Source: a virus
Taxonomy: Duplodnaviria > Caudoviricetes
Direction: 5' to 3' (one strand)
DNA: 63,400 bases
IMG/VR virus record: IMGVR_UViG_3300034101_001021
Span: 1-63,400 of that record
In this document: positions 3,355-43,900 of the stretch, one piece after another
How positions within the stretch are numbered: position 1 is the stretch's first letter
Layout: every line of letters begins with the position of its first letter
Translations under genes and position numbers: made by a program
Notes under the pieces: generated by a model
Told to the model about the DNA's origin: nothing
Seen by the model: the letters and a program-made list of their open reading frames with translations, nothing else
Databases searched by the model: none

Positions 3355-3614
3355 ACTCACTACTTGATCAACGCATACAGAACGGCACCTACTGGTCTGG
3401 CTTTGTGCTCGGCGCATTTTCTATGATGTTCCTGGTCCTGGCCATTGGCCGTATGACAGATGACGATATGCCTAGTCAACTCACCATGCCAAAGGATGTT
3501 GTGGAGGCATACAGGATGGGACTCAAAGATGCCATGAAGACAAACCCTCCCTCGCTTGAACTAGAACAGACATGCTTAAATATGTGGGCAGAGAGACAAC
3601 CAATTAAAGAATAG
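3351..3614 (+). CDS. Hypothetical single-TM membrane protein
   Basis: Hydrophobic YWSGFVLGAFSMMFLVLAIG. Confidence 0.7.
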   Translation: MNSLLDQRIQNGTYWSGFVLGAFSMMFLVLAIGRMTDDDMPSQLTMPKDVVEAYRMGLKDAMKTNPPSLELEQTCLNMWAERQPIKE

Positions 3615-3616
3615 CG

Positions 3617-3720
3617 ACCAGCCGGAGGTGTCGTGGCCTAGACATCCGAACAACACCGGCAGCGGGGGCCTTCATCCGGTACCGAGGGGTTCCGGCTTGG
3701 CTCCAGAAGGTGACCCCGCA
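3617..3720 (+). ncRNA. Candidate structured cis-regulatory RNA
   Basis: GCCGG 3621-25/CCGGC 3656-60; GGTGTC/GACATC; GCGGGG 3662-67/CCCCGC 3714-19; GCCTTC/GAAGGT; ends about 10 nt before the RBS of 3740. Confidence 0.5.
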
Positions 3721-3739
3721 CCTACACTAAGGAGAGATC

Positions 3740-3979
3740 ATGAGAAAGAAAGTAGATCTGATTAACCACCCACCCCACTACACCGTAGGCGGGATAGAAA
3801 CCATAGACTTCATGCGGGCTAAATCTACCCCCGAAGAGTTCATGGGTCATTTAAGATTGACGGTCATCAAGTATCTCAGCCGTACTGGCTACAAAGATGA
3901 CGCGCTGGAGGATTTGAAGAAGGCCCATTGGTATCTTAGTTATCTCATTGCGGAGGCAGAACGTGAGGAAGGTAAGTGA
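3740..3979 (+). CDS. DUF3310 (SaV-like) protein
   Basis: DLINHPPHYT.GGIETID...KYLSR.G.K...EDLKKA.WYL. Confidence 0.9.
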   Translation: MRKKVDLINHPPHYTVGGIETIDFMRAKSTPEEFMGHLRLTVIKYLSRTGYKDDALEDLKKAHWYLSYLIAEAEREEGK

Positions 3980-4154
3980 AAAGGTCTGGACGTACCTGGT
4001 TGAGCACAAGAGGCCAGTCACCAGCGACAAGATTGCAGATCATTACTTGGTCAGCAATGATTCAGTAAGAAAAGTTTTGGGAGAATTGACCCGTAAACAA
4101 GTACTAGATCGAATTAAAACCGGCAATAAGTCTCTATACAAAATTAAGGATTAA
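3963..4154 (+). CDS. Small winged-HTH protein
   Basis: GGAGG RBS then GTG; RPVTSDKIADHYLVSNDSVRKVL. Confidence 0.65.
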   Translation: MRKVSEKVWTYLVEHKRPVTSDKIADHYLVSNDSVRKVLGELTRKQVLDRIKTGNKSLYKIKD

Positions 4155-4156
4155 CT

Positions 4157-4384
4157 ATGAACATCACGCCACTCACAGGAATGTATTCCGCAGCCGACAC
4201 CATCAAGGTCGAGATCAGAGAACAAGACCCACCGTTCACCATGTATGGATTGAGCCGTGAACCCAAAGAAGACGCTATGAAGCTCGCCTTGAACGCCCTT
4301 CTGCTATGGGAAGAGATGATCCCTAAAACAAACGCATCCAAGGTCAGGTCAGAAGCTATCGAGGCTCTTCAGAAGTATGTCTAA
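4157..4384 (+). CDS. Hypothetical protein
   Basis: AAGGA RBS; AMKLALNAL...AIEAL. Confidence 0.65.
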   Translation: MNITPLTGMYSAADTIKVEIREQDPPFTMYGLSREPKEDAMKLALNALLLWEEMIPKTNASKVRSEAIEALQKYV

Positions 4385-4673
4385 CTACCGCAACAAGGCG
4401 CTCCTGGAGGTTGTCCGGGAGTCTCCTTGTCAGATGTGCGGGGCCAAAGACGGTACGGTAGCGGCGGCTCACAGCAACAGACTGCGGGACGGTAAAGGTA
4501 AAGCCATCAAAGCCCATGACTTTCGTATCGCGGCTCTCTGTTACAGATGCCATTCACGCATCGACCAGGGGGCGGACATGAGCAAAGAGGAACGGATGGA
4601 GGCGTGGGAAGAGGCGCACCGGGCTACCATCGGCTGGTTGTTTATGAACGAGAAACTCAAGGTCTTGTCTTAG
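4377..4673 (+). CDS. DUF1364/Ref-like Zn-binding HNH-type nuclease
   Basis: PCQMC...AAHSN...GKG..IKA.D...ALC..CH..ID. Confidence 0.8.
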   Translation: MSNYRNKALLEVVRESPCQMCGAKDGTVAAAHSNRLRDGKGKAIKAHDFRIAALCYRCHSRIDQGADMSKEERMEAWEEAHRATIGWLFMNEKLKVLS

Positions 4674-4693
4674 GGGCGGGGAGGTGGTACTTT
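4665..4693 (+). promoter_or_regulatory. sigma70 promoter for a small RNA
   Basis: TTGTCT (4665-70), 17 bp, TACTTT (4688-93) with extended TG. Confidence 0.55.
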
Positions 4694-4699
4694 CCCTAG

Positions 4700-4773
4700 T
4701 GTTTCATGTGTAACTCTCCTCCCTGTTCACAGGGATTAGACCCAGACTCTCTCCCTGAGCTGGGTCTTTTTTT
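4700..4773 (+). ncRNA. Candidate sRNA (about 73 nt) with two CU-rich anti-SD motifs
   Basis: Between promoter and intrinsic terminator, no ORF; AACTCTCCT 4712-20, hairpin TCCCTG-TTCA-CAGGGA, terminator loop TCTCCCT. Confidence 0.55.
4738..4773 (+). terminator. Rho-independent terminator
   Basis: AGACCCAG/CTGGGTCT stem followed by a T-tract. Confidence 0.85.
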
Positions 4774-4775
4774 CA

Positions 4776-4849
4776 TGGGGGCCGGCAAGTCGGCGCGGCG
4801 ACTTTAAATAGCCCGTAACCTTTCCTTGGTGCAAATGATCCGGCCCCCA
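4776..4849 (+). ncRNA. Candidate structured RNA
   Basis: 10-bp closing stem TGGGGGCCGG/CCGGCCCCCA enclosing AAGTCG/CGACTT hairpin. Confidence 0.4.
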
Positions 4850-4938
4850 CCCTTCTAGGGAACTTTTTCTCAGTTGTGCTATCCTATGTCTGTCGGAAGT
4901 GACGCTCCGGTGTTGTGGCGAGAACTGTGGTATCCAAG

Positions 4939-5021
4939 AACCTCCTAGAGAGGGCTTGAAGTCATCGTTTGGTTCTCGCCCGATGCTGGCTCGTCAAAGC
5001 CCAAGTCCTCCCTAGGAGGTT
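4939..5021 (+). ncRNA. C4/CI-like antisense RNA (three-way junction)
   Basis: 19-bp closing stem with one mismatch; two hairpins whose loops (GTTCTCGCC, CGTCA) complement upstream GGCGAGAAC 4917-25 and TGACG 4900-04; extended -10 TGCTATCCT at 4877-85. Confidence 0.7.
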
Positions 5022-5210
5022 TTTCTTTTGGGTCTCCGGCTGCGGTACATGTGGACGGGGTCTCAACGCCAGCGCATGAACCAAAGATCTGATACTGGGG
5101 GAAAGCTGCGGAAGAATCGGAACGGGGTGGCGAAGCTAGTGCCCCAGCAGCGAACGACTGGCGAGTCAAAGCGGCTCCAATGGACAGACTTTGTAAAGGC
5201 ACCCGAGTCC

Positions 5211-5230
5211 ACTGTAACATTTGTTACAGT
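5211..5230. promoter_or_regulatory. ACTGTAACA palindrome (operator/origin-like site)
   Basis: ACTGTAACA-TT-TGTTACAGT; same half-site at 15293, 15365 and 60810. Confidence 0.65.
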
Positions 5231-5397
5231 ACACGGCTCGGGGATGGCTAAGTCTTGCCCACCAACGGACAGGTGGTGATAGACAAGGTAGAAACAGCAA
5301 GAAGTTAAGGTCAAAAACAACAAAGGGGGATAACTCCCCCCAAAAATCGTTTGTAACTGTGTTACAGTTGGAACATAGTTACATCAAGGAGAGCAGC

Positions 5398-6180
5398 ATG
5401 GATCCCTTCAAGATTACGGAACCCACCGTCATATCGTTCTCTGGTGGTCGTACATCTGCGTATCTACTCTGGCGTGTTCTTCAAACCAACAATGGTCTGC
5501 CGGCTGATGGCCTTGTCGTCTTTGCCAATACAGGGAAAGAAGAAGAGGCGACTCTGCGTTTTGTCCGTGACTGCGAAGTCAATTGGGGCTGCGAGATTCA
5601 TTGGCTGGAGTTCCAAATTGAAGACCCGAAGTTCCGTCGCGTGAACTTTGATACAGCCAGCAGGAATGGCGAACCTTTTGAGGCGCTCATTCGCAAAAAA
5701 AAATACCTTCCAAACATGGTCGCAAGATTTTGCACTCAAGAGTTAAAAGTGCTGACCATAGACCGTTATCTCAAAAGCCTCGGTCATAAAAACTACCTTT
5801 CGATGGTTGGTATAAGGGCAGACGAGCCGCGCAGAGTCACCAAGATTCGCGGACAAGAAGACAAGTTCTGTCCTCTAGCCGACGCCCAAGTAACGGAGCA
5901 ACAGGTGTGGCGATTCTGGGATGAGCAACCTTTTGATCTTGCATTGCCAAAAATGAGTGGTGCATCTAACTGCGACCTTTGTTTTCTAAAGGGTGGTCAG
6001 ATCGTAATGGGATTGATAAAACAAAAGCCAGAACGTGCGGTCTGGTGGGCAAGTATGGAGGAGAAGATTGGCGCTAGATTTAGATCAGACCGCCCCTCAT
6101 ACGCTCAGATGGCCAAGTTTGCCAAAGACCAACAAAATTTATTTACCGACGAAACTATCCCGTGTTACTGCGGGGACTAA
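5398..6180 (+). CDS. Phosphoadenosine phosphosulfate reductase family protein (PP-loop, Fe-S)
   Basis: SFSGGRTS, FANTGKE, RFCT.ELK, GIRADE, SNC.LCF.K, C-terminal CYCGD; AAGGAGAG RBS before ATG 5398. Confidence 0.9.
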   Translation: MDPFKITEPTVISFSGGRTSAYLLWRVLQTNNGLPADGLVVFANTGKEEEATLRFVRDCEVNWGCEIHWLEFQIEDPKFRRVNFDTASRNGEPFEALIRKKKYLPNMVARFCTQELKVLTIDRYLKSLGHKNYLSMVGIRADEPRRVTKIRGQEDKFCPLADAQVTEQQVWRFWDEQPFDLALPKMSGASNCDLCFLKGGQIVMGLIKQKPERAVWWASMEEKIGARFRSDRPSYAQMAKFAKDQQNLFTDETIPCYCGD

Positions 6181-6191
6181 AGGAGAAGAGC

Positions 6192-7004
6192 ATGAAACTT
6201 ACCGAAATCCGTACCGACGGCGGCACCCAGGCCAGGGCGCAGCTGAACCAAGAAGTAGTCAACGAGTACGCAAATCAGATGCAGGACGGGGTGGTCTTCC
6301 CGCCTGTCGTGATCTTCAATGACGGCTCAAAAAACTGGTTGGCTGATGGTTTTCACCGGTACTACGCCCACCGGCAGAACGGCGCGTTAGACATAGAAGT
6401 AGAAGTCCACAGCGGGACGGTAGACGACGCTACCCTGTACGCCTTTGGTGCCACCAATCGACGCGGCCTATCGTTCACCCGCTCAGATCTCACCGAGATC
6501 ATCGGCAGAATTAATAAGCATCCAGTCTGGAGCACCTGGTCTACCAGAAAGATCGCAGAGCATATTGGTTGTTCGCATATGACGGTCAGTCGTATCCGTA
6601 GTTCCTTTGAGGAGGCCCCTAAAAAGGTCTCCTACACCCGCAACGGGGAAGAGAAGACCATGGATACCTCCGCGATAGGAAAGACCCCTAAGAAGCCCAA
6701 AGAGAAGCCTCCCGAGGCGATAGAAGAAAACAATGTCCCAGAAGAATTGATAGATGAAATAAATAAACTATCGGAAGAGAACGAACGATTGAAAGATGCT
6801 ATCGCCATCGGTCAGTTGGATGTCAGCGACATTGAGAAGGCCGACATCGAGGACACGGTTAGGGAGTTGCGGGAGCAGCTGCGGGTCAAAGATGTAGAGA
6901 TCCTGGCTCTCAAAGAAAGCCGTGACATGTATCAGAATGAGAACGCGGAACTCAAGCGCACGGTTAAGTCACTACAGGCCAAACTCAAAAAGGTGGAAGG
7001 ATGA
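6192..7004 (+). CDS. ParB/Srx-like N-terminal domain + HTH + coiled coil
   Basis: GTQAR, FPPVVIF, LADGFHRY.A; WSTRKIAEHIGCSHMTVSRIR. Confidence 0.85.
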   Translation: MKLTEIRTDGGTQARAQLNQEVVNEYANQMQDGVVFPPVVIFNDGSKNWLADGFHRYYAHRQNGALDIEVEVHSGTVDDATLYAFGATNRRGLSFTRSDLTEIIGRINKHPVWSTWSTRKIAEHIGCSHMTVSRIRSSFEEAPKKVSYTRNGEEKTMDTSAIGKTPKKPKEKPPEAIEENNVPEELIDEINKLSEENERLKDAIAIGQLDVSDIEKADIEDTVRELREQLRVKDVEILALKESRDMYQNENAELKRTVKSLQAKLKKVEG

Positions 7005-22355: not shown

Positions 22356-23261
22356 ATGGCTATTTCACGCGCACAACTACTGAAAGAGCTTCTCCCTGGC
22401 CTGAACGCATTGTTCGGTATGGAGTATGCTCGCTACGGCGAAGAGCACAAAGAAGTCTACGAAACAGAGACTTCCGAGCGTTCTTTTGAAGAGGAAACCA
22501 AGCTCTCTGGCTTCTCAGCAGCGCCGGTCAAGAACGAAGGTTCGGCCATCGCTTATGACAATGCCCAGGAAGCCTGGACGGCTCGCTATAACCACGAAAC
22601 CATTGCTCTTGGTTTCTCGCTGACCGAAGAGGCCATCGAGGACAACCTGTACGACAGCCTGTCTGCTCGTTACACCAAAGCGCTGGCCCGTGCTATGGCT
22701 TACACCAAGCAGGTGAAAGCGGCTGCGGTTCTGAACAACGGCTTTGACGCCGCCTATCCAGGTGGTGACGGAGTTGCCCTGTTCTCTAACGCACACCCGC
22801 TGGTATCTGGCGGCACCAACAGCAACATCCCCACCACCCCCACGGACCTGAACGAGACGTCTCTTGAGAACGCCGTCATTCAGATCGCCGCTTGGACGGA
22901 TGAGCGCGGGTTGCTGATCGCCGCTCGGCCCAAGAAGCTCGTTGTTCCCCCCGCACTCCAGTTCGTGGCCACCCGTCTCCTTGAGACTGAGCTGCGTGTT
23001 GGTACGGCTGACAACGACATCAACGCCATCAAGAACAATGGTTCGATCCCCGAGGGATACACCATTAACCACTTCTTGACCGATACCAACGCTTGGTTCC
23101 TTACCACGGACGTACCCAATGGTATGAAGCACTTCGTTCGGGTTCCTTTGCAGAATTCCATGGACGGGGACTTCGACACAGGAAACGTACGTTATAAATC
23201 CCGTGAAAGGTACTCCTTTGGGTGGAGCGATCCGCTCGGGATGTTCGGTTCAGCAGGCTAA
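22356..23261 (+). CDS. Major capsid protein (Mu gpT-like)
   Basis: AISRAQLLKELLPGLN, GGDG..LF...HP, LVVPPAL, TDT.AWFL, DFDTGN.RYK.RERYSFGWSD. Confidence 0.9.
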   Translation: MAISRAQLLKELLPGLNALFGMEYARYGEEHKEVYETETSERSFEEETKLSGFSAAPVKNEGSAIAYDNAQEAWTARYNHETIALGFSLTEEAIEDNLYDSLSARYTKALARAMAYTKQVKAAAVLNNGFDAAYPGGDGVALFSNAHPLVSGGTNSNIPTTPTDLNETSLENAVIQIAAWTDERGLLIAARPKKLVVPPALQFVATRLLETELRVGTADNDINAIKNNGSIPEGYTINHFLTDTNAWFLTTDVPNGMKHFVRVPLQNSMDGDFDTGNVRYKSRERYSFGWSDPLGMFGSAG

Positions 23262-23372: not shown

Positions 23373-24098
23373 ATGGGAATGGGTATCTATAAGATCATCA
23401 ACGTGGTTAACAACAAGTTCTATGTAGGCAGTGCGGTCAACTTTAGCCGCAGGAAAGCCAGGCACTTTTCAGAGTTACGCCACAACAAACACAACAACCG
23501 GTGGTTGCAAGCATCGTGGAATAAACATGGAGAAAGTGCGTTTGTGTTTGCCGTAGTGGAAGAGGTTCAAGACAAAACCTTGCTGCTTGAGGTAGAGAAT
23601 CGTTGGTTGAAAGATCACGTTGGTAAAGAGTATTGCTACAACCTTGGCGTTGACGCTACTGCTCCGATGCTTGGAATGTCTGGAGAATCAAGCCCAACTT
23701 GGGGGTACAAGCACACACCAGAGGCTATAGCAATTATTACTTCTGCTTCTATGGGTCGTAAACACACCCCAGAAGATATAGAAAAAATTCGTCAACATTG
23801 GATTGGTAAACCAAAGTCTGCCGCTACCCGCGCCAAGATCTCGGCCACACTCTCCGGTGAGGGCAACTTCTGGTATGGCAAAAAACGACCTGATCATGGC
23901 GCCAAAGTAAGCAAACCTGTTGTTGTTACAGATCCTTTCGGGAAAACTATGGAGTACGCCAGCATTTCTATCCTGCGAGAAGAGATAAAACTAAAGCCGC
24001 CGACAGTTAACCGGGCGCTGAAATCTGGCAAGCCGTTGAGCCGTGGACCTTATAAGGGCTGGTCCTTTAAATACCTTGACTCCCTCCCTAATCCCTGA
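23373..24098 (+). mobile_element. Free-standing GIY-YIG homing endonuclease with NUMOD3-like repeats
   Basis: GIYKI.N.VN.KFYVGSA, R..H, E..W, YN; G.KHT.E and KS..TR.KIS repeats; C-terminal HTH. Confidence 0.9.
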
Positions 24099-38445: not shown

Positions 38446-38455
38446 AGGAGAGTTC

Positions 38456-42591: not shown

Positions 42592-43005
42592 ATGAATACA
42601 GACATCGATTTATTAAAAATTCAGGCTCGTATTGAGCTAGATAAGTTAGAAGCCCAGGCTGCTGCTAAAGACGTAGCCGGTAAGGCTATCGGCAAGAACG
42701 GCCTTCCTTACATCACTGCCATAGTGGTCATCGGCGTGGTGGCTAGTATCTTCCTAGAAGAAGGCAAGATGGCTGCGGTCATGGGGCTACTCGGTGCTTC
42801 TCTGACGGCCCTGATTTCTATGCTTAACGGCATCGCCGGTACCGCACCCAAGCAAGAGCGGCCTGAGTTTGAAGTCATCAAGACCCTGATCGACCGGCTG
42901 GATAGGATTGCTGATAAGGCCGAGCCTATGGCGGTTACTGTTGATGGTGATCGGGTCACGGTTCGTAAGGGTGACGACATAGTGACGACTGGAAAGGAAA
43001 AGTAA
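42592..43005 (+). CDS. Two-TM membrane protein (lysis module)
   Basis: Two hydrophobic helices; adjacent to holin and endolysin. Confidence 0.65.
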   Translation: MNTDIDLLKIQARIELDKLEAQAAAKDVAGKAIGKNGLPYITAIVVIGVVASIFLEEGKMAAVMGLLGASLTALISMLNGIAGTAPKQERPEFEVIKTLIDRLDRIADKAEPMAVTVDGDRVTVRKGDDIVTTGKEK

Positions 43006-43436
43006 TGCTGCCTCTTGCTGCCATCCTATCAATCGGGGAAAAGGTACTGGACAAGGTACTGCCCGACCCTAATGCTAAAGCAGAGGCCCAAGCCAAGCTC
43101 ATGGAGATGGCCCAAAAAGGGCAGCTTGCCGAACTAGAGTTTCAGGCCAAAGAAATGGCCTCGGCTCGTGACCGTGAGATTCAGATTGCCACCAGCGAGT
43201 TTGCTCCGACTTTGAACAAGATTGTGACTCCCGTGCTGGCGTTGGGTACGGTTGCGCTGACTTTCATGCTCTACGCCGTGATCATTTTTGTGGATGTTGA
43301 CGAGCAGTCTAAAGACATCTTGATCTACGTGCTCGGTGCACTGACCTCTGCCGTGACCATGGTTCTCGGGTACTACTTCGGCAGTTCTGCGGGTAGCAAG
43401 GAAAAAGACCAGAAGATCAAGGATCTAATGAAATGA
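43005..43436 (+). CDS. Holin (3TM holin-like)
   Basis: LDK.LPDP..KA.A, SAR.RE, TM helices, YYFGSS.GS..K. Confidence 0.75.
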   Translation: MLPLAAILSIGEKVLDKVLPDPNAKAEAQAKLMEMAQKGQLAELEFQAKEMASARDREIQIATSEFAPTLNKIVTPVLALGTVALTFMLYAVIIFVDVDEQSKDILIYVLGALTSAVTMVLGYYFGSSAGSKEKDQKIKDLMK

Positions 43437-43900
43437 CACAATTAACCAAGAACTTTTCCCTGGCGGAGATGGTTAAGTCTGAGACTGCGCTGCGGCATGG
43501 TATGGAGAATAACCCTGGCCCGGACGAACTGAACAACCTGTTGCAACTTTGTGCCAATGTCCTCCAGCCTATTCGTGATCACTACCAGAAGGGTGTGAAA
43601 GTCAACTCGGGCTATCGCTCGCCGGATGTAAATGCTAAAGTTGGCGGGTCAAGAACGTCGGACCATACACGTGGTATGGCTGCTGACATAGAGATACCGG
43701 GGGTGCCCAATGCAGAGCTTGCTATTTATATTAGAGACAACCTGGCTTACACACAGCTTATTTTGGAATTTTATACTCCTGGCGTACCTGACAGTGGTTG
43801 GGTTCATGTTAGTTACGATGAGCAGAATCTGAAGAAACAGGTTCTGACGGCCACCAGGAAAGACGGAAAAACCGTATACCTACCAGGATTGGTTGCGTAA
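43433..43900 (+). CDS. Endolysin, peptidase M15A
   Basis: NFSL.E...S.TA, SGYRS...N..VGG...S.H..G.AAD, WVHVS. Confidence 0.92.
   Translation: MTQLTKNFSLAEMVKSETALRHGMENNPGPDELNNLLQLCANVLQPIRDHYQKGVKVNSGYRSPDVNAKVGGSRTSDHTRGMAADIEIPGVPNAELAIYIRDNLAYTQLILEFYTPGVPDSGWVHVSYDEQNLKKQVLTATRKDGKTVYLPGLVA

Follow-up and report, generated by a model that had tools for sequence, protein, structure and literature searches.

A compact RNA unit at 4699-4773 on the plus strand of a 63,400-nucleotide (nt) stretch of phage DNA (IMG/VR record IMGVR_UViG_3300034101_001021; the whole stretch is called the window below) is, by sequence comparison, a recurrent phage RNA gene. We put at a little over one half (about 0.55) the probability that it encodes a trans-acting small RNA (sRNA) directed against Shine-Dalgarno (SD) sequences, representing a phage-borne family that is uncatalogued in Rfam. 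Most likely it would act as an Hfq-type trans-acting translational repressor, with targets among host mRNAs, phage early mRNAs or both. We infer transcription, the use of Hfq, translational repression and the targets from sequence. The parts of the unit, which follows an HNH-like gene, are listed here.

4665-4670, plus strand: -35-like element TTGTCT, overlapping the last codons and the stop of the HNH-like gene
4671-4673, plus strand: stop codon of the HNH-like gene
4685-4693, plus strand: extended -10 element TGGTACTTT (TGnTAnnnT), with TG at 4685-4686 and TACTTT at 4688-4693, separated from TTGTCT by a 17-nt spacer
4699-4773, plus strand: predicted sRNA of about 75 nt, its 5' end predicted from the promoter and its 3' end given by the U-tail
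4699-4712, plus strand: 5' leader with UUUCAUG, a putative anti-start-codon element
4713-4724, plus strand: CU-rich seed ACUCUCCUCCCU, 12 nt, predicted anti-SD; 4713-4719 unpaired, 4720-4724 within hairpin 1
4720-4725 with 4730-4735, plus strand: hairpin 1 (UCCCUG, loop UUCA, CAGGGA) in the minimum free energy (MFE) fold
4736-4739, plus strand: linker UUAG
4738-4773, plus strand: intrinsic terminator, with a bulged stem (4738-4749 with 4757-4767), loop UCUCCCU (4750-4756) and U7 tail (4767-4773)

The RNA unit and its relatives in other phages

The original prediction described a promoter TTGTCT-17-TACTTT with an upstream TG, an intrinsic terminator and a UCUCCCU loop, and all of these lie where it had placed them. 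The promoter matches the consensus at seven of 12 positions. TTGTC is retained in all six syntenic relatives that were aligned, an ambiguous sign since it falls within coding sequence (Leu-Ser-stop); TGnTAnnnT is retained in six of six (TGGTATTTT, TGCTACGCT) despite a variable spacer. The promoter is weak, and its identification depends on the extended -10 element plus its conservation. At the other end of the unit the terminator at 4738-4773 was not called by the terminator scan, which overlooked it because the stem is bulged.

The segment 4695-4775 folds with a z-score of -3.57, equalled by one of 200 shuffled sequences, and its MFE and centroid structures are the same. In the MFE fold 4712-4719 is mostly unpaired, and the CU-rich tract that had been described as an exposed mirror of the SD sequence stands up as a discrete, conserved unit with 4713-4719 single-stranded. 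The RNA had also been described as about 73 nt devoid of any open reading frame (ORF). It is non-coding in the sense that no ORF is conserved; the description fails in that a 33-residue ATG ORF, without an SD sequence, overlaps the unit at 4706-4807 on the plus strand. As a gene this ORF was rejected, its frame and length varying in relatives (13 codons in locus L004). Among the variants listed for four metagenome runs, at least 16 fall at 4587-4677 and four in the linker and terminator loop, with none at 4678-4734.

Viral contigs were searched with the upstream HNH-like protein, giving 80 loci. The five closest (L002-L006, 88-96% amino-acid identity) have the sRNA unit in the equivalent position, and in all five, retrieved via the flanking protein alone, the seed is identical. 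The promoter spacer, hairpin loop and terminator differ among them, unlike the seed. Where the HNH-like protein is at most 74% identical the unit is absent. A pattern scan of viral sequences (CTCCTCCCT-N2-9-AGGG-N0-1-TTAG) gave 32 loci, at 19 of which UUAG runs directly into a GC-rich hairpin and a T-run; the other 13 have no such arrangement. These 19 units lie in four gene contexts.

Window type (A-type), seven contigs: unit 3' of the HNH-like gene
Group B, seven contigs: unit 3' of a DNA polymerase A gene
Group C, four contigs: unit between a nuclease-like ORF and a small winged-helix-like ORF
L143, one contig: unit convergent with a RusA-like gene and alone on its strand

The promoter scan calls TTGGCC-18-TATGAT about 28 nt 5' of the seed in group B, and terminators are called in groups B, C and L143. 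Across groups A, B and C UCACAGGG is nearly invariant. The UUAG linker is retained in all eight A-type and L143 sequences and UUUCAUG in six of the eight; the latter was not seen in group B. The loop of hairpin 1, UUCA in the window, varies in relatives to GUCA, CAC or CCAA. The idea that the RNA displays two anti-SD motifs, to be sought in relatives, holds for the seed, which is kept in five of five close homologues, and has to be given up for the terminator loop. There the motif changes or vanishes: the loop reads UCUCCCU, CCCUCCC, UUGAUUCCCCUCGC or AUGAUUCGCUCU, and groups B and C, like L143, have simple tetraloops.

A covariance model, R1, was built from the window RNA and its six syntenic homologues. 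At E <= 0.01 it recovers 19 of the 19 family RNAs searched and none of 11 chance loci (11 of the 13, the other two being duplicates); L143 and the 11 RNAs of groups B and C, all of them outside the model, are found at 28.6-41.5 bits. Aligned as 16 distinct rows, the family has 99.4% of its cells paired. In the terminator stem five of the eight pairs are replaced on both sides within the family, every cell (100%) remaining paired, and the CCC/GGG pairs of hairpin 1 are without covariation, two never varying and one changing on one side only in the 16 rows. The covariation score is 0.386, compared with 0.157 +/- 0.023 for shuffles (reached by 0 of 500) and at most 0.039 for slid partners.

A blastn search of 4300-5500 against 50,697 cultured phage records gave no match. 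In these records the group C query was also unmatched, and the group B query had partial matches only (E >= 0.03). Species-representative bacterial genomes, which were covered by the pattern scan only and not by R1, yielded 32 loci, with the sRNA architecture in none.

Likeness to known small RNAs

The best Rfam match of 4713-4773 is to RF02278 (Betaproteobacteria toxic sRNA) at 33.7 bits, with an E value of 1.8e-4 in 2 kb and 1.4e-6 for the 63-kb genome. L003 scores 26.8 bits, L143 26.7 bits and groups B and C about 26-27 bits, where the chance ceiling, taken from a 4.6-Mb Enterobacter genome, is 24.9 bits. RF02278-type matches occur in 36 of 151 sampled genomes of the GTDB class Gammaproteobacteria (which includes Burkholderiales) at 29-54.5 bits, one of them reaching 50, and in none of 14 control genomes at E <= 0.001. 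We regard the 33.7 bits of the window RNA as non-trivial because the Enterobacter maximum is lower, the controls are without matches and 35 of the 36 host matches themselves fall below 50 bits.

The host RNAs of this type have a near-fixed GACUCCUCC-AUC-CUCCUUU-GGUGG, then a U-rich linker and a terminator. Fourteen of 30 host loci carry their block ACUCCUCCAUCCUCCUUUGGUGG, a 23-mer, without any change, and 28 of the 30 contain CUCCUCC; a 22-mer of the block occurs in no viral contig. Searched reciprocally with R1 at E <= 1, 12 of the 30 host loci gave a match, in every case on the host sRNA itself, and one host locus (L205) has the 10-mer ACUCUCCUCC in common with the phage RNA.

Like the RF02278 sRNAs (BdhR1 and NcS03, NcS05, NcS27 and NcS62 of Burkholderia), the phage RNA falls in the range of 60-90 nt and has an unpaired 5' CU-rich site with the CUCCUCC core (Site 1, at 4716-4722 in the window), a short hairpin, a U-rich linker, a GC-rich second hairpin that forms the Rho-independent terminator, complementarity to the ribosome-binding site (RBS) and reciprocal model matches. 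A C-rich terminator loop occurs in some phage members and is frequent in the host family. Unlike its host counterparts, the phage RNA is without the block ACUCCUCCAUCCUCCUUUGGUGG, and its first loop (UUCA or GUCA) is without the second CU motif (CCUCCU, Site 2), which in the host RNAs lies inside a near-invariant stretch of 23-27 nt; the Rfam alignment deletes seven loop positions at this point. The RF02278 sRNAs are chromosomal, whereas the phage RNA is phage-borne and its seed is extended to CUCUCCUCCCU.

The anti-hemB family (RF02837) matches the window at 19.4 bits and members of the phage family at 22.4-28.9 bits, below its cut-off of 49.5. Anti-hemB, or Burkholderia RNA 7 (NcS04), is alike in its UCCUCCCUG tract and terminator, and unlike in that the phage matches delete most of the first two hairpins of the model. 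In the whole window only RF02932 (5044-5166) reaches an Rfam gathering threshold, and over the sRNA no family does.

NcS03, NcS05, NcS27 and NcS62 are double-hairpin RNAs with unpaired CU-rich stretches complementary to RBSs, and start sites make up 55-80% of their predicted interactions (PMC5688073, PMC4603805). Overexpression of NcS27 attenuates growth (PMC5688073). Bordetella pertussis S17S is a 67-nt, Hfq-bound RNA processed by RNase E, with three predicted pairing sites (Site 1 in the 5' end, Site 2 in the first loop, Site 3 in the terminator loop) that cover the RBS in most predicted targets; in a reporter it directly represses BP2158, a sigma-54 activator (PMC11722255). Since the same source places S17S and bdhR1 (RF02278) 2 nt apart, within a 5' region 100% conserved across many Betaproteobacteria, the host consensus is here equated with S17S (PMC11722255).

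We keep the phage RNAs apart from RF02278 because the block and the CU-rich first loop are absent and the scores are below threshold and non-exclusive. They are treated as a separate family that would resemble S17S/BdhR in its working. Common ancestry with the S17S/BdhR RNAs is a tentative possibility that we find doubtful. The literature on the Betaproteobacteria toxic small RNA, NcS27 and bdhR1 yielded no phage member, and a full-text search found no related phage-encoded anti-SD small RNA.

RsaE/RoxS, AbcR and LhrC are C/U-rich sRNAs whose unpaired motifs pair with the SD sequence and block initiation; they are chromosomal and linked to metabolism or stress. The T4 RegA protein shuts off translation of early genes at their start sites. 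It would have the same role as the phage RNA if the targets of the latter are phage early mRNAs, but it is a protein and the analogy is purely functional. NmsR is a further C/U-rich anti-SD sRNA (PMC5688073) and, with RsaE/RoxS, AbcR and LhrC, is like the phage RNA in the proposed mechanism; homology is not expected. Among regulatory RNAs that are themselves phage-borne are the phage and prophage sRNAs DicF, c4 of P1/P7, IsrK, AgvB and AsxR, of which c4 and DicF block translation at or near the RBS (PMC12197685). They differ from the window RNA in having few specific targets or acting as anti-sRNAs, and in belonging to enterobacterial temperate phages (PMC12197685). No generic CU-rich anti-SD seed and no likeness to a core host sRNA appear among the phage sRNAs described in the accessible part of that review (PMC12197685).

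Predicted pairing and alternative explanations

In the mechanism that we propose, host sigma-70 RNA polymerase would transcribe the sRNA from the weak extended -10 promoter within the early replication/recombination module, and transcription would end at the intrinsic terminator of the unit itself; processing from the 3' end of the HNH-like mRNA would give an identical RNA. The seed (CUCCUCC) would pair with the SD region of a target and UUUCAUG with its start codon; bound in this way, the target would be closed to the 30S subunit and translated less. An Hfq-type sRNA usually has a body like the one that would be formed here by the small hairpin, the UUAG linker (U-rich) and the terminator, which is GC-rich and ends in a U-tail.

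A complete start site, AGGGAGGAGAG-UUACAC-AUG-AAA, has the 26-nt 5' part GUGUUUCAUGUGUAACUCUCCUCCCU (leader and seed together) as its reverse complement. Pairing was scored by cofolding the RNA with start sites (-30 to +15), of which 131 were crudely called. The mean change in free energy is -6.3 kcal/mol at these 131 sites versus -4.9 kcal/mol at 154 intragenic windows. At the top predicted sites, listed below, the seed lies on the SD sequence and UUUCAUG on the AUG region, with an internal loop between.

60922: exonuclease, -19.8 kcal/mol
6192: ParB-like, -18.2 kcal/mol
7201: helicase, -17.4 kcal/mol
2693 and 2502: small ORFs, -16.9 kcal/mol each
38456: glycosyltransferase-like, -16.3 kcal/mol
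12735, minus strand: -15.0 kcal/mol

When the 14-nt leader is shuffled, the number of sites at -14 kcal/mol or below falls from nine to a mean of 2.3 (none of 40 shuffles reaches nine).

AGGAGAG had been proposed as a frequent RBS of this phage, and the count agrees: there are 11 occurrences on both strands, of which seven lie 3-7 nt before the start of an ORF of at least 40 residues, and these are exactly the starts that had been named (940, 3740, 5398, 38456, 60922, 61793 and, on the minus strand, 12735). The sRNA motif itself, read as its reverse complement, accounts for one of the 11. AGGAGAG is only marginally the commonest AGGAGNN used as an SD sequence (AGGAGAG seven, AGGAGAT six, AGGAGAA four). 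At 38446-38454 AGGAGAGTT is, as had been noted, a perfect complement of AACUCUCCU, and the start site of the PAPS-reductase-like gene in L004 retains AGGAGAG.

Several observations weigh against a dedicated anti-SD sRNA. The consensus promoter scan of 3500-6500 called none. Pyrimidine tracts of 12 nt are common, with about 30 expected in 2 x 63 kb if purines and pyrimidines are assumed equal. Shuffling the 12-nt seed makes no difference to the predicted pairing (mean 8.2 sites), and 15 of 40 shuffled seeds equal or better its top-ten mean. Since they score equally, any CU tract would pair with the purine-rich SD sequences of this phage, and the specificity for AGGAGAG-class genes that had been proposed is not supported. 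The effect of the leader is largely the trivial match of CAU with AUG. The seed and UUAG of groups B and C were prescribed by the pattern used to find them, and the alignment used for the pair counts was fitted to the R1 structure and so favours it. The window RNA does not reach the RF02278 gathering cut-off of 50 bits, although this cut-off is strict, 35 of the 36 genomes with matches scoring below it; the A-type homologues L004, L005, L006 and L151 are unmatched at E <= 0.01, as are L002 and L149, both of which are cut at a contig end. The likeness to RF02278 is, given the matches to RF02837, non-exclusive.

The unit might instead work in cis, as a leader or attenuator, its terminator controlling whether transcription continues into the RNAs and replication genes further downstream (PAPS-reductase-like, ParB-like, helicase and primase). 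The CU tract would then be a protein landing site or part of an alternative fold and the short RNA a by-product. That the unit and the next gene point the same way in three of the four contexts speaks for this and against our proposal; in group C, moreover, the SD sequence of the next gene is directly 3' of the U-tail, and in the window a structured element starts 3 nt past the U-tail, leaving no space for a promoter of its own. L143 is difficult to accommodate, since there the unit converges on the 3' end of the RusA-like gene, which is encoded on the opposite strand, and gates nothing. The agreement of the MFE and centroid structures leaves no competing fold that would open the terminator, and whereas the seed and hairpin 1 are constant, each context has different downstream genes. 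We consider action in cis unlikely. Still simpler would be a plain terminator of the upstream operon with the CU tract as an incidental spacer, as the position directly 3' of a same-strand gene and a promoter that is weak by consensus might suggest. However, the unit recurs after unrelated genes, once alone against the direction of its neighbours, and its seed and hairpin 1 are better conserved than the terminator, the reverse of what would be expected; this explanation seems to us very improbable.

A U-tail and a U-rich linker are typical Hfq contact features. The phage RNA has both, and it could be a decoy or sponge that acts through a pyrimidine- or U-tail-binding host protein, either Hfq, with host sRNAs competed out, or ribosomal protein S1. 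The indifference of the predicted pairing to seed order would fit such a role, as would the near-invariance of UCACAGGG-UUAG, which exceeds what the helix needs. It is at odds with the order of the seed, which beyond its composition is invariant among independently retrieved homologues, and the closest characterized look-alikes act through base pairing (PMC11722255, PMC5688073). A decoy is in our view distinctly unlikely. In the window ACAGGGAU fits what we take to be the CsrA/RsmA core from systematic evolution of ligands by exponential enrichment; a CsrA/RsmA site was rejected, as most homologues have not kept the GGA (AGGGUUAG, AGGGCUUAG), which is also within a stem. The complementary strand was also considered, the reverse complement of 4699-4724 being a textbook SD sequence, spacer and ATG, so that AGGGAGGAGAG-UUACAC-AUG would be the RBS of a minus-strand mini-ORF. 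This ORF is MKH-stop in the window and 16 unrelated codons in L004, its ATG is absent in L130 and L143, the neighbouring genes are all on the plus strand and the U-tail exists on that strand only. The mini-ORF was rejected because it is not conserved among relatives, and a functional minus strand is scarcely credible.

Genomic setting, neighbouring RNA modules and implications

The record has a CheckV completeness of 100% and a GC content of 50%, and its PHROG matches are those of a tailed phage. The sRNA unit sits within the replication module, in a gap of 725 nt between the HNH-like and PAPS-reductase-like genes.

4377-4673, plus strand: upstream gene, 98 residues, HNH-like (phrog_131 HNH endonuclease, E 1.4e-22; weak match to Pfam DUF968)
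5398-6180, plus strand: downstream gene, PAPS-reductase-like
About 60.9 kb across the record ends to about 10.6 kb: replication/recombination module (exonuclease, Erf-like, SSB, methyltransferase, PAPS-reductase-like, ParB-like, helicase and primase; PHROG)
15701: large terminase (PHROG)
17148: portal (PHROG)
22356-23258: major head protein (PHROG)
40659: tail fibre (PHROG)
43005-43897: holin and endolysin (PHROG)

A GIY-YIG/homing-endonuclease-like gene (23373-24095, plus strand; phrog_314, E 2.8e-37) lies directly 3' of the major head protein gene. No tRNA or tmRNA was found within the 63,400-nt window. DNA of the phage is present in lake-water metagenomes from 17 studies, and no RNA run was among the matches listed for it in the sequencing-run search. 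Two Rfam families and the lake habitat suggest a betaproteobacterial host.

The 725-nt island holds at least three further conserved RNA modules beside the sRNA, one of them the Betaproteobacteria-1 RNA.

4777-4850, plus strand: conserved structured element, with an outer helix GGGGCCGG/CCGGCCCC and an inner hairpin GUCGGCGCGGCGAC, followed by UUUAAAUAGCCCGUAA and UGCAAAUGA
About 4878-5029, plus strand: third promoter-to-terminator unit, with an extended -10-like TGTGCTATCCT, a structured RNA of about 140 nt and a terminator CCUCCCUAGGAGG-U5CU4 at 5007-5029
5044-5166, plus strand: Betaproteobacteria-1 RNA (RF02932), 90 bits against a cut-off of 49.4

Both helices of the element at 4777-4850 have compensatory changes in L003-L006, and one G-U pair fits the plus strand only. 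A Pistol ribozyme at 4788-4830 was rejected: the match reaches 21.2 of the required 34.5 bits and deletes most of the 3' half of the model. Contig depth rises three- to sevenfold at 4788-4811 in two metagenomes. The unit at about 4878-5029 matches no Rfam family; its core, 4965-4994, is exact in 27 viral contigs, including phages without the sRNA, and its summed contig depth is 30-45 times baseline in one lake metagenome.

RF02932 lies 3' of the HNH-like gene in eight of 20 related phage loci scanned, with a cut copy in L151. This recurrence marks the orphan motif as a module of phage replication regions; full-text literature under the name Betaproteobacteria-1 RNA held nothing relevant. In L013-L019, L022 and L024 a different sRNA-like unit stands directly 3' of the HNH-like gene and is followed by the Betaproteobacteria-1 RNA. 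It comprises a strong promoter (TTGAC-N17-TGCTATATT), a CU-containing RNA with UUCCUCUCCUAGCAG and UUGUGCAAAGCA, and a terminator. One related contig has an int-alpA RNA (RF02996; L012, 1823-1898, plus strand; 39.2 bits against 35.8) 3' of the HNH-like gene. Before the PAPS-reductase-like gene of the window are two GTAAC-N-GTTAC palindromes (CTGTAACATTTGTTACAG and TTGTAACTGTGTTACAG, at 5213-5230 and 5350-5368 on the plus strand), which are kept in L004. They look like candidate operators of a repressor controlling the downstream replication genes.

We also considered whether the phage RNA is a seed mimic of the S17S/BdhR core regulator of the host, a counterfeit sRNA that would bear the CUCCUCC core of Site 1 and enter the Hfq network at infection. 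We judge this unlikely. If it were so, the S17S/BdhR regulon (transporters, sigma-54 activators, and carbon and amino-acid catabolism) would be shut down in a metabolic takeover, and the anti-AUG leader would extend the reach of the RNA to phage early replication genes and time their shut-off. The seed of the phage RNA overlaps that of a widely conserved betaproteobacterial sRNA, and if it works as we propose, the RNA would be a defined and easily synthesized object for the study of phage-host seed mimicry.

The regulatory RNAs covered by the accessible part of a recent review are those of cultured phages, mostly enterobacterial prophages (PMC12197685); the family described here comes from about twenty uncultured phage contigs. 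Its distribution suggests a compact RNA gene that moves as a module between gene contexts. If our proposal is correct, a single RNA of 75 nt would let some environmental phages steer the translation of their hosts, their own translation or both.

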